64,000 nt of DNA from a virus (IMGVR_UViG_3300028581_000026:1-64000); one strand, 5' to 3'. Shown: positions 8,548-64,000, counted from the first letter of the stretch. Notes: generated by a model from the letters alone, not told the origin. Numbers and translations: made by a program.

Positions 8548-8576
8548 AAATACCTTTCATAAACCCATTTAGTTCC
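8548..8576 (-). promoter_or_regulatory. Possible fourth GGAACT-N17-GT promoter
   Basis: Minus strand ggaact-aaatgggtttatgaaag-gtattt, same spacing as the 35 kb repeats. Confidence 0.35.
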
Positions 8577-8590
8577 AAGAACTAAAACTT

Positions 8591-8869
8591 TTATTCAGAT
8601 TTTATTTTCTCCAAGATATATTTTGAATTATTTGTGTCAAACTTTAACACATTACCATCATATTCAAATGAGGTTATCTCTGTGGTTAACCAGGTGTATG
8701 TGAATAAATGGGGTTCAAGAATAACTGATCTTCCTATTGCTGGTTCATCGTGAACTTTGGAGAATCTTCCATCTTCATCCCACTCAACGAATTTAACAAC
8801 TCTACCACCAAGAATTCTATTATCTTTTTCCCTGGTTAATTTGTATGTATCACTAGTTAGTTTATTCAT
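8591..8869 (-). CDS. Hypothetical phage protein
   Basis: VEWDEDGRF...PAIGRSVIL...YTWLTTEIT...FDTNNSKY. Confidence 0.75.
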   Translation of the reverse strand: MNKLTSDTYKLTREKDNRILGGRVVKFVEWDEDGRFSKVHDEPAIGRSVILEPHLFTYTWLTTEITSFEYDGNVLKFDTNNSKYILEKIKSE

Positions 8870-9047
8870 AATCTTCTTCTATTTTTTCAATGTTTGTTAT
8901 TATGGTAAAGTTAATCGGAAAACAAGCAACGGTTTCATCTTTATACCAAAATCTATAGAGACCATTAATTGCTTCAAAATTACCAGCAAAAACTTTGAAG
9001 CTCTTAGTATTGTCTCCTACTATAACGGATATCTCAAATTTGTTCAT
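8862..9047 (-). CDS. Hypothetical protein
   Basis: Operon packing; VACFPINFTII. Confidence 0.65.
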   Translation of the reverse strand: MNKFEISVIVGDNTKSFKVFAGNFEAINGLYRFWYKDETVACFPINFTIITNIEKIEEDYE

Positions 9048-9059
9048 AGTTGTATTTTT

Positions 9060-9620
9060 TTAATATATATAATTTCCAACCCATTCAAATTTAGTTTCCA
9101 TTTTAAATTCAAAACCAATTGGATATTTTGTTAAGGTTTTTAACTCCTGTTCATAAAACCATTCTTGTCTTTCCTCGTAGTCCATATCTTTCCAATTTGA
9201 TGGATAATTTTCTTCATATCCATTTCTATCAGAACCATTATATCTTTCTCTAAGTTCCCAACCCCTTGAAAATATTTTCCGTAAATCTTCTTCTGTGTAT
9301 TTGTATTTCTCCTTGGCTTTCTTATAACCAATCATAAGAATATTGGAAATTGATTTGTTACAACTTTCGGAAATTGATTTCTCATATTCATCTTCTTGAA
9401 GTGGTGGAAGTAGTGGAATGTTTTTCAAATTATTGGCACTTAATGGTAAATGTGCCAATATTTTTTTATGGACTAGGGGATGTATATCGTTTAATGTGTC
9501 AATCTGTTCCAATCCATTTGTACCATCCACATAAGTTTCCAATACTATATCCCCTTCTTTAATTTCTGAATCATCCACAACAAGTAGATAGTTTTCTGTT
9601 TTAATTATATCGTATTTCAT
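9060..9620 (-). CDS. Hypothetical protein
   Basis: IIKTENYLLVVDDSEIKEGD...KKILAHLPL...KYTEEDLR. Confidence 0.75.
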   Translation of the reverse strand: MKYDIIKTENYLLVVDDSEIKEGDIVLETYVDGTNGLEQIDTLNDIHPLVHKKILAHLPLSANNLKNIPLLPPLQEDEYEKSISESCNKSISNILMIGYKKAKEKYKYTEEDLRKIFSRGWELRERYNGSDRNGYEENYPSNWKDMDYEERQEWFYEQELKTLTKYPIGFEFKMETKFEWVGNYIY

Positions 9621-9621
9621 A

Positions 9622-9774
9622 TTATTGTTTTTTTAAATCAATTAATAATAATTTACCAATAACAAAACCAAGACCCATAATAAGAGTCTCCTGATAACCA
9701 CATAATTTAACACATAATATTACTATTGATACACCTAATATCATAGCTAAAACATAAATTAATAATTCTTTCAT
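9622..9774 (-). CDS. Small membrane protein (50 aa)
   Basis: MKELLIYVLAMILGVSIVILCVKLCGYQETLIMGLGFVIGKLLLIDLKKQ; two hydrophobic segments; downstream of TAnnTTTG. Confidence 0.55.
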   Translation of the reverse strand: MKELLIYVLAMILGVSIVILCVKLCGYQETLIMGLGFVIGKLLLIDLKKQ

Positions 9775-54856: not shown

Positions 54857-55203
54857 TGTTTTGGTCTGTTTTCTTCAAAATATTCAACAACCGCATTGAT
54901 TGCCCATACAGCTCCAGATGATAAGATTCCATCAAAGAACCAAGAACCCCATATTGGAATTCCATATAATGTATGAATTGGTGAGAATATTACCAATGAT
55001 AAAAACCATCCTCCGTGAAAACTGAAACACATCGGACAAGATAAAATACCATCAATAAATCTTGGGAAGAATGATAATTTTGAATTTGAATCTCCAGCTT
55101 TCTTAAAGAAATCTCTTAGTCCTTGGAATATACTTCCGTAAACCATAATGTTCATTAATCCATAGGATAAGATGAACCAAGTGATAATTTGAATTGTAAT
55201 CAT
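54853..55203 (-). CDS. DUF1360-like membrane protein
   Basis: IFQGLR...ILSCPMCFSFHGG with TM helices. Confidence 0.7.
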   Translation of the reverse strand: MITIQIITWFILSYGLMNIMVYGSIFQGLRDFFKKAGDSNSKLSFFPRFIDGILSCPMCFSFHGGWFLSLVIFSPIHTLYGIPIWGSWFFDGILSSGAVWAINAVVEYFEENRPKQ

Positions 55204-55212
55204 ATTTGTATA

Positions 55213-55620
55213 TTATTTTTGTATGTTTATTGAAATTTTATATTTTAAACCATTATCACTCATTATATCCCAAGTAATACTTAAATCGTCAGGATTGAAT
55301 AATCTTGGGGATATTACATTATCGTTTCCAAGTTTATTAAGAGAACATTGAATACATTCAACTATTGATTTTGGAATTTCATTTGTTTTTACAAAATTGT
55401 TTATTTCCGCTTCAGTTAGATAAAGTCCGACATTACCATCTTCATCACCAAATGTTTGTCTGAATTTTTCAACTAACCCCATTGGGAGTTCATAATTTTT
55501 TAATGTTGGGTTTGGTTCAGATTTGTCAATGTAGTAGTATATTCCTCCTTGACTTGAAATTGGGGACTTCGTAATACTATCACCTTTAGATACAATATCC
55601 ATAAATCTTTTGGAGTCCAT
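55213..55620 (-). CDS. Hypothetical protein
   Basis: 135-aa ORF. Confidence 0.65.
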   Translation of the reverse strand: MDSKRFMDIVSKGDSITKSPISSQGGIYYYIDKSEPNPTLKNYELPMGLVEKFRQTFGDEDGNVGLYLTEAEINNFVKTNEIPKSIVECIQCSLNKLGNDNVISPRLFNPDDLSITWDIMSDNGLKYKISINIQK

Positions 55621-55649
55621 TAATTTTTATGTTAAATCGTTTTCCATCG

Positions 55650-55946
55650 TTAAATTATATTTGTTTTGTCATTTATTATACAAATTGACTCATCCAACTT
55701 TTCACATATTTGTTTCAATTCTTCGGTCTTGAAGTCATCCAAACAAAACCATTCTCGTTCAATATTATAATGTTTAAATCTGAAATGGAGAGCTTTTTCA
55801 AGTTGGGTGGGGTACTTTGTTTCGTATTCAAGTATAAGGATTAAATTTGGGGAATTCAACTCCTTAAGCCTATTTTTAACCTTTCTTTTTGTATAACCAA
55901 TCTTAACCTGATCTGAGTTATCTTTGATAAAGTAAACAAATCCCAC
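55650..55946 (-). CDS. GIY-YIG/T5orf172-type nuclease
   Basis: FVYFI...VKIGYT...RLKEL...EKALH...REWF. Confidence 0.8.
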   Translation of the reverse strand: MGFVYFIKDNSDQVKIGYTKRKVKNRLKELNSPNLILILEYETKYPTQLEKALHFRFKHYNIEREWFCLDDFKTEELKQICEKLDESICIINDKTNII

Positions 55947-55995
55947 TACTTTTTTATATTAAAATAGTGGGATTATATAAAAGGTAAATATTATG

Positions 55996-56403
55996 TTATT
56001 TATTTTCCAATATGGTGTCAGCGACAATTGAATAGTAGAAGTCAGACAATTCATCATCTTCCATTTCTTTTATATCATCAAACCCTAAAGCATGTAATAA
56101 ATTTGATATATCGTAATAATAGTATGGGATATCAATTGAACTGGGAAGTCCTTGTAACCATTCAATTAATGCTTTCTTTTGCCCATATCTTTTGATTGCC
56201 CAACCATACTCATCCAAAAATACCTCAAAAAGTTGGGTGAATTTGTTATCAACTTTCCTTTTGAAGTCATATCCTTCAAAACTAATTCTATCTTTCAAGA
56301 ATTTTTTTAATTGGTCGTAGGGGTCATCTTCTCTAATCTCATTGATTGTTCTTTTGATTAGTTTGGTTAAATCAGATTCGGTTAATCTTCTAATTCTTTT
56401 CAT
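55996..56403 (-). CDS. Hypothetical protein with shared leader
   Basis: MKRIRRLTESDLTKLIKRTINEI from ATG 56403; ATATTTAT at 56417-56424. Confidence 0.75.
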   Translation of the reverse strand: MKRIRRLTESDLTKLIKRTINEIREDDPYDQLKKFLKDRISFEGYDFKRKVDNKFTQLFEVFLDEYGWAIKRYGQKKALIEWLQGLPSSIDIPYYYYDISNLLHALGFDDIKEMEDDELSDFYYSIVADTILENK

Positions 56404-56423
56404 AATTGTTTTAATTATAAATA

Positions 56424-56999
56424 TCACAAGTTTTGACTTATGTTTGAACCTTTCATATAAACAGCACCAGTATTTGATACCAATTGTTCAATCTTATTAT
56501 TGAGTTCAGTTATTATCTTATCCTTATCACCCATTTCCCTTCTCAATTTCATCAAGGTTTCTTGTAACATAACCATCTTTTCATTTGGTTTTTCAACCTC
56601 CTTGATTACCTCAACCTGGACAATTTTTTCCACTATCTTCTCCACTTCCACCGGTACTTGGACAATTTTTTCTACTATAACCTCATTTGTGGAAAATATT
56701 TTCTGCTCAATTGGGACTTCTTTGATTATTTCAACAATCTTCTCAACCTCTTTAATGACCTCGATTGGGATCTCTTTAATCGTCTCTTTTTCCACATATT
56801 TAATAACCTCAATCGGAATTTCTTTCTCAACATATTCAATAATTTTTTCTGTGTTATTACCAATTAAACCATATCTCTCAATATCATATCCCTTCTTAAA
56901 ACATTTCTGAAAGAACTTATCAACATCTTCAATGTTATTTAACTTACAATAATCAGTTAAATCCTTTTGGTTTTGTTTATTGAGGGTTAGTTTGTTCAT
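56424..56999 (-). CDS. Protein with V/I-E-K-P low-complexity repeats
   Basis: EKIVEIIKEVPIE / VEKIVQVPVEVEK repeats. Confidence 0.75.
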   Translation of the reverse strand: MNKLTLNKQNQKDLTDYCKLNNIEDVDKFFQKCFKKGYDIERYGLIGNNTEKIIEYVEKEIPIEVIKYVEKETIKEIPIEVIKEVEKIVEIIKEVPIEQKIFSTNEVIVEKIVQVPVEVEKIVEKIVQVEVIKEVEKPNEKMVMLQETLMKLRREMGDKDKIITELNNKIEQLVSNTGAVYMKGSNISQNL

Positions 57000-57810
57000 T
57001 ATAGTTATATATTATTATCTCCTGACTATTCTTGGAGTTCTTATTTCTTGCCACCTTCTCATAATCACCTTCCAATATCTTATGATTAAATCCATCATCC
57101 AATAACTTATAAATAATCTCAGACTTCTCGTTGTTCTTATGTTCCCCCAATACACCACTCAACATAAATGAATGACCCATATTGTTTAATTCAACAATAT
57201 AATCATACAACTGACTTTCTTTTGTCTTTGACCAATAAGCATTATATCCCGCCTCAGTATTTGTATATGGGGGATCAATATAAATCATACTGGGATTTTT
57301 GGGTTTAATCTCACTAAAATCCTTGGATATAAAATAAATCTTATCTTTGTGGTTGGAGATATGTCCAACAAATTCATTCACCTTCTTCTCGGTTGAAGCA
57401 TTCCAGGTTCTCTTTCCAAATGTCTGATTAAATTCAAAACTCTTATTGAACCTCATCATATTGTTTGTACAAGATAACATTAATGCCCATAACTTCTCTG
57501 GGGACTTATTGGTATTGAAACTTTTTCTCAATTCCATAAACCCCTCAGAGTCATCCTTATTGACCAATACGGACTTTGTTTTGGTTATGATAGATGTTGA
57601 ATCATTAACCAAATCTTTGTGGATTCCAACCAATTCTTTTATAATGTCATTGACCAATATCTTTTCATATCGGTCAACAACATTGGTATAGACCGAACCT
57701 CCACCACAAAATAAATCAACGAAATATTTCTTGGTGTAATCGAAGTTTGGAATTAGTTGGTCTAATAACTTAAACTTTGAACCGGTGTAATTGAAGGGGG
57801 TATTAACCAT
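56977..57810 (-). CDS. D12-class (Dam-like) N6-adenine DNA methyltransferase
   Basis: PFNYTGSK, VDLFCGGGSV, YIDPPY, EIIIYNY; start ATG 57810. Confidence 0.9.
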   Translation of the reverse strand: MVNTPFNYTGSKFKLLDQLIPNFDYTKKYFVDLFCGGGSVYTNVVDRYEKILVNDIIKELVGIHKDLVNDSTSIITKTKSVLVNKDDSEGFMELRKSFNTNKSPEKLWALMLSCTNNMMRFNKSFEFNQTFGKRTWNASTEKKVNEFVGHISNHKDKIYFISKDFSEIKPKNPSMIYIDPPYTNTEAGYNAYWSKTKESQLYDYIVELNNMGHSFMLSGVLGEHKNNEKSEIIYKLLDDGFNHKILEGDYEKVARNKNSKNSQEIIIYNYNEQTNPQ

Positions 57811-58582
57811 TTGCGAGTGTTTCATTTTCGTTAAGAATGTCTTCATATGAATTAATAACAAATTTAAGGAAAGGTCTTGGATTATCCAAATCCACAAAGG
57901 AATATTTGTTATTTATTACATCATAAATTCCAAATCCGTGTTTCTTTATATTCTCCCCATAGTTTTGTTGTACAACTGAACCTATCATATATGCTTTCTT
58001 ACCATTTGGAATATCAAAAATTTGACGTTTGTGTATGTCTCCACATAGAATTAGGTCACACCCATCAAACTTATCCACTTCATATCCTGTCTCAAACTTA
58101 TATCCAATGTCGGTATATAAACCAACAATGGGTCCGTGAAATAATCCAATCTTTAATCTGTCTGACTTCTCTATAATTGGTGGGATGTTGTGTTCAAATA
58201 ATGAATAAACAACCCAATCTATATTCTCGTCTTGATATACACCTCTATCCTTGTAATAAACAATATTGTCATTGTCCATTGATTGAATGATGGGGGTTAA
58301 TGTGTCTAGTCTTGATAAGTTGTTTTCAAGCATGTCATGGTTGCCTACAATTATAATTGTTTTGGCTATCTTTGAACATTCATCCAATACCCACCTTACC
58401 ATTTCAATAAGTTCAGGACTGACTTGGTTTTTACTATGGACTAAATCACCTGTGAATACCACTCTATCAGGTTTTATTTCCTTGAATTGATTGAACATAT
58501 CCGTAAGGATTGTTTTATATAGGTCGTGGTCTTTAATTAATCTCAAATGTAAATCTGAGAAATGAACCAATTTTTTAATCAT
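57803..58582 (-). CDS. sbcD: SbcD/Mre11/gp47 metallophosphoesterase nuclease
   Basis: SDLH, TGDL, GNHD, FHG, GDIHKRQ, GS..QQNYGE. Confidence 0.9.
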   Translation of the reverse strand: MIKKLVHFSDLHLRLIKDHDLYKTILTDMFNQFKEIKPDRVVFTGDLVHSKNQVSPELIEMVRWVLDECSKIAKTIIIVGNHDMLENNLSRLDTLTPIIQSMDNDNIVYYKDRGVYQDENIDWVVYSLFEHNIPPIIEKSDRLKIGLFHGPIVGLYTDIGYKFETGYEVDKFDGCDLILCGDIHKRQIFDIPNGKKAYMIGSVVQQNYGENIKKHGFGIYDVINNKYSFVDLDNPRPFLKFVINSYEDILNENETLANG

Positions 58583-58673
58583 ATTAATTACAATTTTATT
58601 TTTGAATCTTGAAGGTTGTGTTGTTTAATACCTTGATTTTGTTGGGGTTGGGGGGTACTGGATATATTTCTTA

Positions 58674-58797
58674 GTTATGTGTAAGTGTGGTTCTGTCCTC
58701 CGAATTAACTTCCGTGTTAGAAAATTTTAGAAAAAACCCACCGCACATTTTTAATAATTTTTTAAGAACACAAAGATAAGGAAATTTTTTATTTTAA
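58674..58797. repeat. Left copy of mosaic inverted repeat
   Basis: Blocks 58674-58689, 58719-58736, 58747-58762, 58782-58797 are reverse complements of 63684-63699, 63630-63647, 63602-63617, 63571-63586. Confidence 0.8.
58771..58778 (-). promoter_or_regulatory. TAnnTTTG -7 element upstream of sbcD
   Basis: Minus strand TATCTTTG. Confidence 0.5.
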
Positions 58798-59196
58798 TTC
58801 AAAATCCAGGAAAGACATATTATATAAATTTAACTTATATTTTCCTGATGGATTAAACAATCTTTCAATTATCTCACAGGATTCCTTCTGTAATTCCACC
58901 ATAAAGATTTGATTTTCAATTATATGTTTCCATCTTTTTCCTGGATTAGGTTCCCAGTCTTTAAGACCTTCCATTAATTTTTCAATTAGAATGATTGAAT
59001 ATTGTCCAAAACCCGCACAAGGATCAAGAAATGTAGATGTTGGATCCTTAAATAATTCAGGATCAATGTTAGATACATGTTCCTCAACTAAATAAAATTC
59101 AGTAAAAACTTCACCAAAAGTATCAGCATGTTCTTTCCTATACTTGGTCAGTTTATTAATTTCATCTTTTATTTTCTTAATACCTTTTATTGCCAT
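58789..59196 (-). CDS. Short N6-adenine MTase-like protein (SAM-binding half only)
   Basis: FGEVFT...FLDPCAGFGQY...IFMVEL; no NPPY/DPPY. Confidence 0.75.
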   Translation of the reverse strand: MAIKGIKKIKDEINKLTKYRKEHADTFGEVFTEFYLVEEHVSNIDPELFKDPTSTFLDPCAGFGQYSIILIEKLMEGLKDWEPNPGKRWKHIIENQIFMVELQKESCEIIERLFNPSGKYKLNLYNMSFLDFELK

Positions 59197-59198
59197 TT

Positions 59199-59474
59199 TT
59201 ATTTACATTCTTTTAAGTCTAAAAGATCATTCTCTTTTGATTGATCACCATCCGTTCTTAAATATTTATCTTTTACAATATGAACTTTTGTTCCCTCTGA
59301 TGTTTTAATTTCTACTTCATTTTCATTCTTTTCTAAATCTCTAACTTCTTTGATGAAATCTTCTTTTTTCTTTCTACTATATTTAGTTTTGTCTGTATCA
59401 CTTACAACACCAACTTTTTCAATAACACCATCTTTGTCTTTATTTACACAATAAATTTCTTTTACAATTTTCAT
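59199..59474 (-). CDS. DUF3892-like protein
   Basis: KYLRTDGDQSKENDLLDLKEC. Confidence 0.7.
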   Translation of the reverse strand: MKIVKEIYCVNKDKDGVIEKVGVVSDTDKTKYSRKKKEDFIKEVRDLEKNENEVEIKTSEGTKVHIVKDKYLRTDGDQSKENDLLDLKECK

Positions 59475-59484
59475 AATTTTATTA

Positions 59485-60849
59485 TTATTTTTTAATTAAT
59501 TTTAATCTTTCACATCTTTCTTCAATAGTTTGTATGTCTTCCTCTGTTAGATTTAGATATTTGTAAATGTTTTCATCATCTACTTTCTCTAATTTTGAAA
59601 AATCAATATGTGGAACTAGAGATAGTGTAGATATTGTAATTGTCTGTTTATTTTTTATAAGAGAAACACAAAATCTGAAAACCTTTGTATTAATATAATT
59701 AAAGAAATTAATCATATCATTCTTATTATTGAAATTCCAATTAACTAAACTTTGATTACAAATTTCCCCAACATTTCCAATGAGAACTCTACCCATGGAA
59801 TATGGATTGGCACCATATTTTGATGTTGTGAATATTTTATAAAGATTGAAATCATTCTTGATCCTATCAGTTAAATATTCATTTGGTAAATATTTAACAG
59901 AACCTTTTTGTTCAGAAACATGACATTTCACACAATGTCCATTATCAATATCAATAAGTCTATTATCATTTGATGATAAATTATAATATGATTGAGGTCT
60001 AAAATTCAACATATCTAATTTATCAAATTTTAAAAATTTATCCAAAACCTTTAATTCATTTGTATTTAATTCATATGGTAAAAAGTTCAAAGCAACTTTT
60101 CTATTATAAGCAACACCATTTAATTCAAATGTATCTTTTGTGTTTTCATTATCAATAACAAAATATGAAACACCTCCTGATATTTCAGTTCCCTTAAACG
60201 GATTTCTGGAATAATGAACAATTTTATCAACATTATAACCATTAATCATCTTTTCCCTGAATTTTTTATGTGATGGAAGGTTCATCCAATTAGATTTAGT
60301 AATCATAATTACATATCTATCCGCTAACTCAAAAGCCTTATCTACGAATTCTGGATATATACTAGAGGATCTGTTTCCACCTTCGCCACGAACTCCGTTA
60401 TATGGTGGATTTGTTATAACACAAGTAAATTTCTTTTTCAATTCATCTAAATTATTTTTTTCATCAAGGATGTTATAATTATATCTATTAAAATCCAATA
60501 AGTTTTTAATTTTTAGTATCTTTTGAACCTTTATCATAGTTGATTTAGCAATATCTACCTGTGCTTTTGAAATATCATTTCCAGCAATTTTACTATGTAT
60601 AAATTTATTTCTTTCTTCATTATCTGGAATTATATTTTCTAAAAAATTCCAAAATTCTAAATATAAACACAACAAAAATGTTCCTTTCCCACAACAAATA
60701 TCTAAATATGAAAAATTAACATTAAATTTTTGAGAAATCAAATCTCTACAAACAGAAATAGGAGTCATCGTTGATGAATCCGAACTTTCTAATTTATCTA
60801 TTTGCTTGAATAGGATATCTATTCGCAATTGTTGTTCTTTTGAAATCAT
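59485..60849 (-). CDS. Eco57I-like N6-adenine DNA methyltransferase
   Basis: TMTP, LDICCGKGTF, ITNPPY, YPEFV, ISGGVSYF, C-terminal YKYLNLTEEDI. Confidence 0.85.
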   Translation of the reverse strand: MISKEQQLRIDILFKQIDKLESSDSSTMTPISVCRDLISQKFNVNFSYLDICCGKGTFLLCLYLEFWNFLENIIPDNEERNKFIHSKIAGNDISKAQVDIAKSTMIKVQKILKIKNLLDFNRYNYNILDEKNNLDELKKKFTCVITNPPYNGVRGEGGNRSSSIYPEFVDKAFELADRYVIMITKSNWMNLPSHKKFREKMINGYNVDKIVHYSRNPFKGTEISGGVSYFVIDNENTKDTFELNGVAYNRKVALNFLPYELNTNELKVLDKFLKFDKLDMLNFRPQSYYNLSSNDNRLIDIDNGHCVKCHVSEQKGSVKYLPNEYLTDRIKNDFNLYKIFTTSKYGANPYSMGRVLIGNVGEICNQSLVNWNFNNKNDMINFFNYINTKVFRFCVSLIKNKQTITISTLSLVPHIDFSKLEKVDDENIYKYLNLTEEDIQTIEERCERLKLIKK

Positions 60850-60851
60850 TT

Positions 60852-61364
60852 TTAGAAATTTAGTATTTTACACACATACAACTTATCAATATACTTTTGA
60901 TCTTTCATTATATTATAAACCATAATGTAATTAAAAGCACTCCACTCGATAGATTTACCGATCATTTTTGTATTAACTTCACCTGTGTTAATATCAATTG
61001 TTGTGTCAATTTGTATATTAGATGCTTTTGATGTTAGCAATCGTTTAGTATTATTAATAAAAGATGAAATTTCTTTTTTCTTAAAAATCAATTTAGAAGT
61101 ATCAAATCTTTCCAGTTTAGCCAAAAATTCATCCAAATCAACTCTTTTAGTTTCCACAAAATCGGTAAATTCTTTTGAAATCTTAATATTTGTAAAATCT
61201 TCAATTTTTGTTTCAGTTCCATCATTAATTCTATTTTCAGATATTAATGGAAAAGATTTTAATATTCTATGAAATTCAACATTGCGATTGAAAAATAAAT
61301 ATCTAATACCAAAATATAATGATGGTATTCCAAAAAGTCCTAAAATTGTTAAAATTATCTCCAT
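60852..61364 (-). CDS. Membrane-anchored hypothetical protein
   Basis: N-terminal TM helix; lies inside the R-M-like island. Confidence 0.7.
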   Translation of the reverse strand: MEIILTILGLFGIPSLYFGIRYLFFNRNVEFHRILKSFPLISENRINDGTETKIEDFTNIKISKEFTDFVETKRVDLDEFLAKLERFDTSKLIFKKKEISSFINNTKRLLTSKASNIQIDTTIDINTGEVNTKMIGKSIEWSAFNYIMVYNIMKDQKYIDKLYVCKILNF

Positions 61365-61366
61365 AA

Positions 61367-63517
61367 TTAGTTATATAAATATTCGTTGTTAATATTGAAT
61401 AAATCAATGCTATCATTAATCTTTTCTTCTAAAATAAATCCTTTATCTAAAAGAACTTTGAAAGTTTCAACGCCAATTCCTGTTTGTGTCTTAAATTCTT
61501 CTTTATAGTTGAATATATCATTTATGTTTGAAATTTTATCCACCACAAAAAGAAAGTTCTTAAATCTGTTTGTAATCAATCTTGCTTTGATTATATAATC
61601 TTCTATTTTTTCAACTTCACCACTTTTACCTTCACTAACTTTTGTTCTTTTAGAATTTTTGCCCCTACCTTTTGATGATTTATTTAATTCTGTTTGTTCT
61701 TCTTTTGTTAAATTACCATGAATATTTTCTAATATTTCCTTAATATCATCATCAAATTTTCCTATATTTAACATAGATAAAGAACCAAAATAATCAGTTA
61801 AAATTCTATTAAAATGTTCCAATAAATCATCACTTTTCATCTTAACAATAGAAGCACCATCAACACTAAATATCGGCATACATTTTAACATTTCAGAACT
61901 AAATTTAGATGGTTCATATCCAGTATATTTAGATATAATGGTTGAATATTCAATATAACATTTCAACATTCTATCTGAGTTAAAATCAACTATATGAACT
62001 TTCTCTTTCAAAAATTCACCATAATTGCTAATCCAAGGACTGCCGATTCTCATTCCTGTTTGAAACCAATTTTCAGCAGAATATCCATCATCTAACATCC
62101 AAACAGATTTCCATTGTTTTACGGTTGAACCAGTATTCCATCTACCACAAGATAATGTAATTGTCTTACCAACTTTATTGTAAATTCTATTTTTAGTATC
62201 TTCTAAATCCTTTACTTTATCACCAGAAGCATTAACTACTTTATAATCTTTCCAATAAGGATGTTCAGACAAAACTTTTTCAATAGTATCACAATTTATA
62301 ATTTGTGGTAAATACCAAAACATATGATTAGTTATTAAACCATTCATACTTGGATCTAATTTAATCCATTCCAAAAAATCATATACTAATTTTTCATTAG
62401 AAAATAATTTGTAATTTGTAATTTTTTCTTCCTCTGAATAAAATTTCAAGAATTTATTTACTAAACTATTATTATACTTACACAAGAAAACTTCAAATTC
62501 AGGTAATGAACGATAAATGTCTGTTTCCCAACCACTTTCTTTCTCCAATCTTCTTTTTAATTGTTCTTGTAGATATGTCCAAGTAAAAACTTCTTCTTTA
62601 TCATATTTTCCATCTAAAATAGCCTTAAATGGAGTTCCTGATAAGGCAAGTTCATAATCATAATTTAATTTTGATAAGAAGTTTTTAGATCTTTCAGTTT
62701 CATAACCATAGTGCATTTCATCCGAAATAACTAAATCAATTCTTTGTTCAAAAACTGGATTCCATTTGTCTTTATGTTGTTTTATAATATTTCCTTCATC
62801 ATCTTTAACTTCTCCCAGAGCATCCTGAAATGAAGCAAATATAATTTGAACTTTATCAGTTTCTTCAAATTTAACTTCATCTAATCCAATTGATTTTTTG
62901 AAAACAAAATCTTTGAATTCAATATGATCTATATCATCTTGCCAACTTTCAGCAACACCATTTGGTTTATATGTTAAAACAAGAACTCTTTTGAATTCCA
63001 TATTTTTAACAATTCTATAAGAAATATGACATTTACCAGAACGCATTTTAGCATTAACCAATGCTCTTACAATCTTTCTTTTTTCGGTTCTACTAATATT
63101 CAATTTGAATAATTTACAAACACCATCAACAATATCTTTTTGTTCTTCTCTTGGTGGATAAGTTTTCAATTTTTTTGTTCCATATAGAATATCATTAACT
63201 TCTCTTGTTGCTTGCTCTATTGTATCAAATTCAAAAAATTCTCTATCTCTATCCTCTCTATATTTAGGAAAACCTCTTTTTTCAAGTTCAGGATGGACTT
63301 CTTTATCTGATAAAGGTGAATTTTTCCAAACTTTTAGTATAGTTGGCTTTTCAAAAACAAAAGTCCCATCAAGTGTTTCAACTCGGACATCAGCATCAAT
63401 TGCTTCTCCAACTTTAATAATACAACCTCTTCTTAATGGTTCTAATCCGTGTTCTGTTCTATCCAAATCAGCAGGATATTGTAAAGTTTTAGTTGATATA
63501 AGGTATAAATCTTTCAT
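61367..63517 (-). CDS. Restriction-type SF2 helicase with N-terminal GIY-YIG/T5orf172-like nuclease
   Basis: IKVGEA...RV...DKEVH...REFF; AKMRSGK, SDEMHYG, LSGTP, TGSTV, QTGMR. Confidence 0.82.
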   Translation of the reverse strand: MKDLYLISTKTLQYPADLDRTEHGLEPLRRGCIIKVGEAIDADVRVETLDGTFVFEKPTILKVWKNSPLSDKEVHPELEKRGFPKYREDRDREFFEFDTIEQATREVNDILYGTKKLKTYPPREEQKDIVDGVCKLFKLNISRTEKRKIVRALVNAKMRSGKCHISYRIVKNMEFKRVLVLTYKPNGVAESWQDDIDHIEFKDFVFKKSIGLDEVKFEETDKVQIIFASFQDALGEVKDDEGNIIKQHKDKWNPVFEQRIDLVISDEMHYGYETERSKNFLSKLNYDYELALSGTPFKAILDGKYDKEEVFTWTYLQEQLKRRLEKESGWETDIYRSLPEFEVFLCKYNNSLVNKFLKFYSEEEKITNYKLFSNEKLVYDFLEWIKLDPSMNGLITNHMFWYLPQIINCDTIEKVLSEHPYWKDYKVVNASGDKVKDLEDTKNRIYNKVGKTITLSCGRWNTGSTVKQWKSVWMLDDGYSAENWFQTGMRIGSPWISNYGEFLKEKVHIVDFNSDRMLKCYIEYSTIISKYTGYEPSKFSSEMLKCMPIFSVDGASIVKMKSDDLLEHFNRILTDYFGSLSMLNIGKFDDDIKEILENIHGNLTKEEQTELNKSSKGRGKNSKRTKVSEGKSGEVEKIEDYIIKARLITNRFKNFLFVVDKISNINDIFNYKEEFKTQTGIGVETFKVLLDKGFILEEKINDSIDLFNINNEYLYN

Positions 63518-63570
63518 TCTTTATTTATAAAATAAGTTAATATCCAAAGTGTAAAAATACAAAAAATTCC

Positions 63571-63699
63571 TTAAAATAAAAAATTTAAGGACACAAAGAT
63601 TAAAAATTATTAAAAATTTCCCTCCCTTCTTTTTTCTAAAATTTTCTTTCAGTTCTACGATTAAACATTCTGCCTCAATAATTCACACCTACACATAAC
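63571..63699. repeat. Right copy of mosaic inverted repeat
   Basis: See 58674..58797; also contains direct repeat tttaag(g/a)acacaaagat (63584-63600 vs 58761-58777). Confidence 0.8.
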
Positions 63700-64000
63700 A
63701 AGGTGTATATGTAATGTGAGGTTCAGTAGTTAATTTAACATTTGTTCTTCTAATTAGGTTCATCGGTTAAGTCAAGTTTAGTGTTTCAAATCTCACACTA
63801 CATATACACCCAACCGTTATAAAACATTATAAACGACCACCCCATTCAAATTTTATATCATCAACATTATAGTGATAAGTTGAAAACTTCATTAAATAGT
63901 TTATTTAAATTCTCTACTTTCTCATTATCAACAACTCCATTATCAATATATAAGTTCCTATTTACTTCAATCATTATACTATAAACATTTTTATTGTTGT

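Follow-up and report, generated by a model that had tools for sequence, protein, structure and literature searches.

What are the inverted repeats that bracket a group of five genes in the virus sequence IMGVR_UViG_3300028581_000026:1-64000, and do they mark the ends of a mobile unit? The window, by which we mean the whole stretch of 64,000 nucleotides (nt) analysed here, covers the first 64 kb of an 86.5-kb virus record from a lake metagenome. CheckV rates this record as 29% complete, and it is therefore a fragment of a very large (jumbo) phage; the hosts of these large phages are probably Bacteroidota. The contig has a G+C content of 30%, and nearly all of its genes lie on the minus strand. 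An earlier annotation made without database searches (the sequence-only reading) had described 58674..63699 as an island resembling a restriction-modification (R-M) system between mosaic inverted repeats of ~125 bp, and had proposed either recombination sites of a mobile or invertible cassette, or an origin-like hairpin split by the island. Our results favour the mobile cassette: the same pair of ends surrounds other cargo in related phages, the island occurs in other contexts with breakpoints at its ends, and a recombinase gene stands beside such cassettes in relatives. We consider it fairly probable that the island is an integron-like gene cassette at a secondary site, where a Xer-type recombinase would act at a hairpin bounded by AAC.

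Integrons are the textbook example of how bacteria capture genes cassette by cassette. A system parallel to them, with a short Xer-type recombinase, hairpin sites before the genes and cassettes that each carry long split arms, would show by what means the accessory genes of huge phages are renewed. To such a system the window would contribute a multi-gene cassette with a helicase and a DNA methyltransferase, a lone cassette at a secondary site far from any recombinase gene, and one cassette seen in three genomic contexts. The family extends to a bacterial chromosome, and its cultured Polaribacter phage relatives make the mechanism bench-testable.

The repeat-bounded unit

The unit consists of the following parts, where b1-b4 are the repeat blocks and S1-S3 the spacers between them.

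58674..63820, minus strand: whole mobile unit, comprising ATAAC, hairpin, 5' arm, five genes and a 3' arm ending in ATAAC; breakpoints in the runs X17 and X18 fall here, and element alignments diverge here
63816..63820, minus strand: ATAAC core at the 5' boundary (GTTAT on the plus strand), directly before the hairpin; X17 breakpoint at 63820
63702..63810, minus strand: attC-like hairpin of 109 nt, with 22-nt arms (63702-63723 and 63789-63810) and a 65-nt loop; the inverted repeat is 91% complementary
63571..63699, minus strand: 5' arm ('G2' element) with b1-b4 and S1-S3; 60 bits with the nhmmer G profile
58674..58797, minus strand: 3' arm ('A2' element) in the order b4, S3 with TATCTTTG, b3, S2, b2, S1, b1; 84.5 bits with the nhmmer A profile
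58674-58689 and 63684-63699: block b1, 16 nt, reverse complements with one mismatch
58719-58736 and 63630-63647: block b2, 18 nt, exact reverse complements
58747-58762 and 63602-63617: block b3, 16 nt, exact reverse complements
58782-58797 and 63571-63586: block b4, 16 nt, exact reverse complements

All four blocks were recovered in the mirrored order in which they had been reported. A single block means little, because this AT-rich contig holds 49 merged pairs of exact inverted repeats of at least 15 nt. The chain of blocks is far beyond chance. Chained, gap-tolerant local alignment of the left end with the reverse complement of the right end scored 91.9, whereas 1000 first-order Markov shuffles scored 32.8 ± 6.2 (maximum 56.3) and 6818 other windows of the contig reached at most 51.2. 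The concern that the blocks might merely reflect base composition can thus be set aside.

On the gene strand, the hairpin is followed by TT and then by GTTAT, which is the start of the 5' arm (the first letters of b1). The 5' arm sits 53 nt upstream of the ATG of the first cargo gene (63517), and the 3' arm ends in ACATAAC at 58674. The repeats of ~125 bp therefore stand as the arms of the island, whereas the conserved unit reaches further to the right than had been drawn, to 63820, and includes the hairpin.

Contigs from four public runs were aligned to positions 55000-64000; these were assembled contigs only, in which rare forms are invisible, and stretches without cover were given no weight. 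Two runs from other studies, X17 and X18, contain the island at about 90–97% identity with almost no cover over the backbone at 55000-58611. On the left, their contigs depart from the window at 58674 (X17) and 58672 (X18), on the right at 63820 (X17) and 63828 (X18), and run into other sequence; hence the unit sits in at least three genomic contexts. In X17, the sequence past the left end begins like another family hairpin. Joints with short sides or low depth were set aside (56416 to 59691 in X11, 63716 to 63796 in X17 and X18, and a strand change at 63307/63415 in X17). The summed contig depth over the hairpin region (63729-64000) was 58 in X17 and 124 in X18, whereas values over the island were mostly about 5–15, with a maximum of about 30; the hairpin is therefore multi-copy in those metagenomes.

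The comparison with relatives points in the same direction. The island genes are absent from all 63 related loci found via the neighbouring phosphoesterase gene, and in these relatives the homologue of a small gene at 65.6–66.0 kb abuts the phosphoesterase start. Therefore, ~7 kb is extra in this phage (58583-65617), and the repeat-bounded island makes up most of it. Outside 58674 and 63820, the flanking DNA is not duplicated, and only the ATAAC inside both unit ends repeats. A transposon with terminal inverted repeats was rejected on this lack of a flank duplication and on the lack of any transposase family match among the five cargo proteins in Pfam, PHROGs and NCBIfam.

A family of cassettes with the same ends

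When IMG/VR was scanned with the s3 motif and block b1, near-identical left-type and right-type ends came up in other contigs. The b1 scan returned 75 stretches in 63 distinct contexts, about a dozen of them chance matches in unrelated coding DNA. A scan of the viral contigs with the AT-rich block b2 returned 110 stretches, nearly all by chance, and a blastn screen left few real ones. With nhmmer profiles, made from 32 copies of the right-type ('G') and 11 of the left-type ('A') end, almost every G element had a convergent A element downstream. The listing comprised 30 G...A pairs, one of which (L132_6950; L numbers are our handles for the loci compared) was dropped because its nearest 3' arm belongs to the next cassette. 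Besides the window's cassette, 28 others on viral contigs carry the same arm pair. Their 3' arms lie 376–2051 nt downstream of the 5' arm, compared to 5026 nt in the window. No A element was detected by nhmmer for a few G copies (L207, L223 and the first G of L212 and of L123), and likewise none for weak or partial G matches in L230, L243 and L262.

Most of the 29 cassettes hold one gene, of 74–283 amino acids (aa), and the window's multi-gene cargo is the largest among them. The cargo has the same orientation relative to the arms in all 29. Upstream of most of the 30 listed 5' arms, where the DNA reaches, we found AAC, a hairpin of 40–130 nt, (T)T and then GTTAT; the letters directly before the hairpin, where the 130 nt upstream extend that far, are mostly ATAAC or CTAAC. 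ATAAC terminates every 3' arm. The subtype of b2 co-varies between the two arms of a cassette, with two types. Five cassettes share the window's subtype (window, L123, L237, L229 and L135), and its 5'-arm subtype was found in L123/L206, L237, L229 and L135/L213. Near-identical copies of the 3' arm fall into L072/L107/L199 and L076/L123/L206. The arms are also mosaic between copies: the 5' arm of the window combines a G1-type S1 with G2-type b2-b4. Hairpin and 5' arm together had no DNA match in 50,697 phage records.

A b1 scan of a genome collection returned 74 stretches, of which nhmmer left 12 loci (one of them a weak 20-bit G match only) on 9 or 10 contigs. This yielded eleven more G...A pairs in nine contigs of metagenome-assembled genomes (MAGs).

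The cargo proteins of the family are unrelated save for an N-terminal leader of about 20 residues. In the leader clusters (e.g. L195-L261), 14 proteins start with MKDLKQFIKTTIREFLNE, and a second cluster of 4 starts with MSKEMREQINKVKNW..FLNE. The window's helicase retains the first four leader residues only. To judge from its sequence, the leader looks like a capsid-targeting or export tag with an LxE-type cleavage motif. The internal-protein genes of phage T4 offer a parallel, as they are described as sharing a capsid targeting sequence (PMC3012670). The family's typical cargo, other than that of the window, resembles the T4 proteins of that account in consisting of unrelated small proteins with only a leader in common; the likeness concerns the cargo rather than the repeats, and is known here from sequence alone.

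A recombinase beside the cassettes of relatives

The sequence-only reading saw no recombinase in the window, and this is true of the entire 86.5-kb record. In the relatives, a 266-aa tyrosine recombinase with the domains Phage_integrase and Phage_int_SAM_4 adjoins the cassette of L237, which is of the window's subtype. Homologues with 60–73% identity lie downstream, on the cassette strand, of 12 of the 30 cassettes, or of 9 of the 22 whose downstream DNA spans 5 kb or more. All 11 distinct full-length loci have (A/C)TAAC roughly 45–60 nt before the recombinase start, and in 3 of them these letters are the end of an A element. Such a primary (attI-like) insertion site by the recombinase gene is present in relatives only, and the cassette of the window is not at such a site. 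The place of the recombinase in relatives is between homologues of the window genes at 18.8 and 18.3 kb, where the window has neither recombinase nor cassettes.

By sequence, the enzyme is of the Xer/IntI kind, but without the insertion that defines IntI. Its best NCBIfam models are XerA_Arch (177 bits, cutoff 220) and the integron integrase model integrase_gron (151 bits, cutoff 265), and the nearest solved structures are an XerC-like protein, XerA and IntI4. In the alignment with IntI4 (2a3v), residues 13-175 and 209-261 match chain residues 12-178 and 260-312, with 34 residues between the two parts compared to 82 in IntI4.

Two further cases link enzyme and site. In a Crocinitomicaceae MAG, a single cassette in the 3.2-Mb genome lies on a 74-kb contig with ordinary bacterial genes (L272, 5900-7860), about 45–50 nt from the stop of a convergent gene for a 385-aa recombinase, and its cargo is leader-tagged. 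This recombinase is 42% identical to the phage enzyme, scores 229 bits with NF040815 (cutoff 220) and is one of five homologues in the genome. Among its closer orthologues (50–70% identical), most have a hairpin and then GTT(A/G) just downstream of the gene, and several of the genes lie within 60–250 nt of a contig end, as if repeats follow.

In cultured phages, the closest recombinases, at 38% identity, are those of Polaribacter and Cellulophaga phages. The Polaribacter phage isolates Freya_1 and Freya_10 are 99.9–100% identical round the recombinase gene and differ in a 4.9-kb block of small co-directional genes. The insertion point in Freya_10 lies exactly behind an AAC, about 47 nt before the recombinase start; the block begins with GGATATGG.., like the hairpin starts of the family, and ends in ..CTAAC. 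Genome lengths of the ten listed isolates of the Freya phage species lie between 43,978 and 48,920 bp, with matching shifts in the position of the recombinase gene (L362-L365). The bacterial and the cultured-phage case may count as two independent supports for the link between enzyme and site.

Folding of the ends and a proposed mechanism

A pattern search found 46 distinct copies of the family hairpin; the flanks were built into the pattern, and the flank motif was not independently counted there. An alignment of 25 shorter hairpins gave 26 consensus pairs, including conserved G.U pairs. Compensatory changes in 13 of the 26 indicate that the hairpin is real.

Folding in silico bears out the claim that both ends together give a stem with two-fold symmetric internal loops; the spacers form such bubbles in the zipped arm stem. 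When the window ends are joined (3' arm, hairpin and 5' arm; 375 nt), they fold as one hairpin of -93.5 kcal/mol, against -67.3 ± 5.7 for shuffles, with 83 of the 127 bases of the 3' arm paired with the 5' arm. Across the 29 cassettes, the pairing of the arms was -40.3 kcal/mol, against -19.1 ± 3.6 for shuffles. In view of this junction fold and of arm pairing above that of shuffles, the most fitting reading of the repeats is that they are two separated halves of an extended recombination hairpin belonging to the cassette itself, a reading modelled from predicted folds.

A mechanism could then run as follows. On the gene strand, each unit consists of a hairpin (40–130 nt, flanked by ..AAC and GTT..), 5' arm, cargo and a 3' arm running to ..ACATAAC. 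An excised circle or a tandem row would make 3' arm, hairpin and 5' arm contiguous, and the contiguous arms could zip into one long imperfect hairpin. This hairpin would serve as the recombination site, and the AAC/GTT cores would sit at the foot of the inner hairpin. The cutting and joining, next to AAC, would be done by a small tyrosine recombinase of the Xer/IntI-like kind. In the relatives, its gene lies just downstream of the cassette rows; for the phage of the window, it would be elsewhere in the genome or supplied in trans. Cassettes would be inserted at an AAC by the recombinase gene or, as here, at a secondary AAC between two backbone genes. We infer that the recombinase moves the cassettes, that its substrate is folded and that a circle exists.

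Spacers that keep the gene strand

The sequence-only reading had also noted that the spacers resemble each other on the same strand. This proved robust for s3, where only 1 of 2000 shuffles reached the direct score, and moderately so for s1 (15 of 2000), whereas the likeness of s2 by itself is not significant and amounts to C-richness only (364 of 2000). The 10-nt core of s3 occurs twice in the 86.5 kb, both times on the plus strand. Family-wide, the flipped orientation beats the repeat-consistent one for S1 in 22 of the 29 cassettes (2 ties, 5 lower) and for S2 in 17 (6 ties, 6 lower). The sense strand consequently has the same spacer motifs at both ends, such as GGGTGGG and a GAAC-rich stretch. 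In b1, every 5' arm has G at position 11 and every 3' arm has A, so that the sense strand forms G.U (G.T) there and the antisense strand C.A. Moreover, sense strands pair better than antisense strands in 27 of the 29 arm pairs (-40.3 against -33.9), and the gene-sense strand of the hairpin folds better in 42 of the 46 copies with RNA parameters and in 39 with DNA parameters.

We tentatively read the same-strand spacers as strand-specific signals, for protein binding or in RNA. The flipped spacers, position 11 of b1 and the better pairing of sense arms together point to a strand-specific role, which could be either the choice of one folded DNA strand by the recombinase or a function in RNA (terminator, processing site or read-out promoter). 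Rfam gave no match in a scan of 58400-64000 with E values up to 1, and ARAGORN found no tRNA in the window.

Tentatively, and with the odds rather against it, the same-strand spacers could be a designed asymmetry of the recombination site, in a gene-capture system of Bacteroidota phages that parallels integrons. In the zipped stem, the two sides of a bubble have one and the same sequence, GGGTGGG being an example. When folded, the sense strand shows the spacer motif twice and the antisense strand only its complement, so that a recombinase or helper protein could pick both strand and orientation. In integron attC sites, extrahelical bases select the strand, whereas these cassettes would use two-fold symmetric bubbles instead. 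If this were true, phages of Bacteroidota would possess gene capture parallel to integrons with its own enzyme and site grammar, and the cassettes would ferry defence or counter-defence modules between phages and into bacterial chromosomes.

Two other origins of the spacers were rejected. Three nested integrations at simple sites (arms plus an asymmetric core) could generate repeats whose spacers are direct, but would involve implausibly small circles, and the whole arm is kept as one unit in many contigs. The spacers are not loops of local hairpins between adjacent blocks either, as the folds show only AT-rich, inconsistent local pairing. The 3' arm has a recurrent stem from S2 to b1', which gives no explanation for S1 or S3.

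The promoter element TATCTTTG reported in one spacer is present, in S3 on the gene strand of the left end, where it points at the downstream gene. Promoters of the Bacteroidota type consist of TTTG, 19–21 nt and TAnnTTTG. At the left end, this promoter fits in full, but its TTTG lies inside a cargo gene and is not conserved in L123, and the candidate was rejected. The right end has TAnnnTTTG. The contig showed no excess of TAnnTTTG on its gene strand, with 75 hits compared to 103.

Comparison with known systems

The cassettes share much with integrons. In both, small and mostly single-gene cassettes stand in rows, imperfect palindromes (in the phage family, candidate folding sites) with AAC and GTT triplets at their base lie between the cassettes, an insertion point lies by the recombinase gene, and one strand folds better. 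Single cassettes away from a recombinase and methyltransferases in the cargo are also common to both. In contrast to integrons, the phage-family recombinase has 266 aa without the IntI-specific insertion, lies downstream of the cassettes and is co-directional with them, and the hairpin precedes the cassette gene. Each phage cassette also has inverted arms of 80–125 nt outside the cores. The integron core consensus is RYYYAAC / GTTRRRY. The 7-mers ACATAAC and GTTATGT match it in part only, as do the cores of the phage family. We therefore regard the cassettes as an integron-like system with a different enzyme and site grammar, of which no description turned up in our literature searches.

The inner arms of dif sites have the letters CATAA and TTATG, which resemble the ACATAAC and GTTATGT of the cassettes. 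Like the cassettes, the dif (pdif) modules of Acinetobacter plasmids are presented as modules between inversely oriented Xer-type sites in differing contexts, and their sites as contiguous stretches of 28 bp (11-6-11) recombined by the host XerC/XerD (PMC6449649). The phage arms, in contrast, measure 80–125 nt, are separated by a hairpin of 40–130 nt or flank the cargo, and the enzyme is phage-encoded. No 11-6-11 dif-type site was found at the island ends. As presented by Qi et al. (2023; PMC9892861), the phage integron parts in print are attC sites of the classical type, identified with IntegronFinder, and on that account belong to another system than these cassettes.

Within phages, there is a likeness to the promoter-early stem-loops (PeSLs) of T4-type phages. 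These are described as direct repeats with sigma-70 promoters and variable crossover points, with no dedicated recombinase in that account (Arbiol et al., 2010; PMC2839356), and have been proposed as vehicles of modular shuffling and of mini-circles (PMC2839356; Comeau et al., 2014, PMC4122927). As portrayed in these two papers, they share with the cassettes a repeated stem-loop and a conserved leader before orphan genes in hyperplastic regions of large phages. They differ from the phage cassettes in that the latter have an inverted 3' arm, AAC-bounded junctions and a tyrosine recombinase by the rows in relatives.

Alternative explanations

An alternative explanation might accordingly be that the cassettes are PeSL-like regulatory units, in which the hairpin is a terminator, the 5' arm a promoter plus leader, and general homologous recombination does the shuffling, while the recombinase serves lysogeny or dimer resolution only. 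The layout of a hairpin, about 110 conserved nt, ATG and orphan genes in a variable region would suit this (PMC2839356; PMC4122927). So would the mosaic arms, an RNA hairpin with a sense-strand folding bias and conserved G.U pairs, and the SbcC-like recombination functions that the phage encodes (PHROGs matches, obtained for few contig proteins, include an SbcC-like nuclease subunit and several DNA methyltransferases). Yet PeSLs are direct repeats, whereas every cassette here also has the inverted 3' arm. Moreover, the window's locus in relatives offers nothing to recombine with (no blastn or nhmmer match in L005-L067), the breakpoints fall at AAC in three contexts and in the Freya pair, a lone cassette stands by a homologous recombinase in a bacterial genome, and the promoter in the 5' arm is putative only. 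We consider this explanation unlikely. PeSL-type shuffling without any dedicated recombinase was rejected on the recombinase by the rows in relatives, the AAC junctions and the lack of an element at the relatives' locus.

Alternatively, the arms might act mainly in RNA, as a panhandle in which the untranslated regions at the two ends of the cassette transcript pair, be it to stabilize the transcript or to have it processed by an RNase specific for double strands, with the spacers as RNA motifs and mobility as a side effect. The better pairing of sense arms, the G.U at position 11 of b1 in sense RNA (C.A in antisense) and the sense orientation kept by the spacers agree with such a role. However, G.T is also the best-tolerated mismatch in folded single-stranded DNA, and a panhandle would require end-to-end pairing of a five-gene transcript of 5 kb. 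It would leave the AAC junctions, the linkage to a recombinase and the several contexts unexplained, and none of the 20 listed runs is on record as RNA. This makes a role mainly in RNA quite improbable.

An invertible segment, the other half of the cassette proposal, would have the recombinase flip the island at its repeats and so switch expression of methyltransferase and helicase. The inverted repeats that bracket the island would allow this, and models of tyrosine-type invertases match the relatives' recombinase weakly (45 bits, cutoffs 221–222). Against it, the cargo has one orientation relative to the arms in all 29 cassettes, the spacers follow the gene strand, and the record lacks a recombinase; among the assembled contigs of the four runs, none has the island turned round at its repeats. 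We regard inversion as very improbable. Lastly, an origin-like or other backbone hairpin split by the island, or a chance likeness of AT-rich intergenic DNA, is scarcely credible: the two ends do fold together and exact inverted 15-mers are common in this AT-rich contig, but the chained score lies far over shuffles and all other contig windows, the same ends surround other cargo in dozens of contigs, the genes of the relatives' locus abut without such a hairpin, and the cumulative GC skew drops steadily through the region with no turn.

Several observations weigh against the integron-like cassette that we prefer. The sense-strand folding bias (42 of the 46 hairpins, 27 of the 29 arm pairs), together with the conserved G.U pairs, would be expected of a role at the RNA level too. 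Within a type, the arms of one cassette have no pairing advantage over non-cognate arms, with cognate and non-cognate energies of -39.4 and -39.2 for G1 and of -44.5 and -45.2 for G2, so that cognate covariation was not found. The sharp boundaries at AAC, rather than being crossover points, could be where a conserved functional element ends. The insert of 7 kb exceeds the cassette, which is only part of it, and an empty site for this insertion was not found; the upstream neighbour gene (257 aa) has no relative in the viral_contigs collection. The record, 29% of the genome according to CheckV, contains no homologue of the relatives' recombinase, and the linkage in 12 of 30 cassettes partly reflects shared synteny of related genomes rather than 12 independent events. 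The run data consist of contigs, in which a circle junction and rare forms are not visible. Finally, the integron-like model leaves the spacers unaccounted for.

Cargo genes and surroundings

The five cargo genes of the window are listed below in the order of transcription.

61367..63517, minus strand: gene 1, ResIII-type helicase of 716 aa; Pfam ResIII 2e-10, PADLOC type IIG REase_MTase (middle region) 1e-15
60852..61364, minus strand: gene 2, 170 aa; sub-threshold Pfam match only, none in PHROGs, NCBIfam or PADLOC
59485..60849, minus strand: gene 3, N6-adenine DNA methyltransferase of the Eco57I/PglX type, 454 aa; Pfam Eco57I 2e-15, PADLOC PglX 8e-15
59199..59474, minus strand: gene 4, DUF3892 protein of 91 aa; Pfam DUF3892 5e-9
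58789..59196, minus strand: gene 5, 135 aa; weak partial matches of methyltransferase type (phrog_4376 1.5e-12, PADLOC mad2 2.5e-4)

Gene 1 had no PHROG or NCBIfam match. Gene 3 also gave a partial match to the NCBIfam model of BREX PglX (7.5e-12), far under its cutoff. The stop codon of gene 5 falls within block b4, and the homologue of this gene in L068 adjoins a methyltransferase or is fused to one. The helicase and the methyltransferase agree with the description of the island as R-M-like, but a nuclease domain was not found in any of the five proteins with Pfam, NCBIfam or PADLOC, and 'R-M-like' is therefore only half shown. The island is more AT-rich than its surroundings, with a G+C fraction of 0.235–0.273 at 59001-63000 compared to mostly 0.26–0.35 in the window, in keeping with a foreign origin.

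At the upstream junction of the 58583-65617 insert, this phage and its relatives share ATGATT, the six letters with which a 92-aa gene starts here; at this junction in relatives, the start of the phosphoesterase gene overlaps the stop of the preceding gene. A Dam-type (D12) methyltransferase gene (56977-57846) lies between the phosphoesterase gene and a gene of 191 aa and is absent from most relatives. In relatives, these two neighbours abut or overlap, and 56977-57846 is therefore a second insertion in a hot spot. In L045, the phosphoesterase gene itself is split by an insert of ~1.07 kb (8564-9640) with a cysteine-rich, zinc-finger-like open reading frame, possibly a homing endonuclease or intron. 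The record starts with a tandem array of about six 60-nt repeats (positions 1-360) with a G-run motif at its end, which may represent iterons or an end structure.

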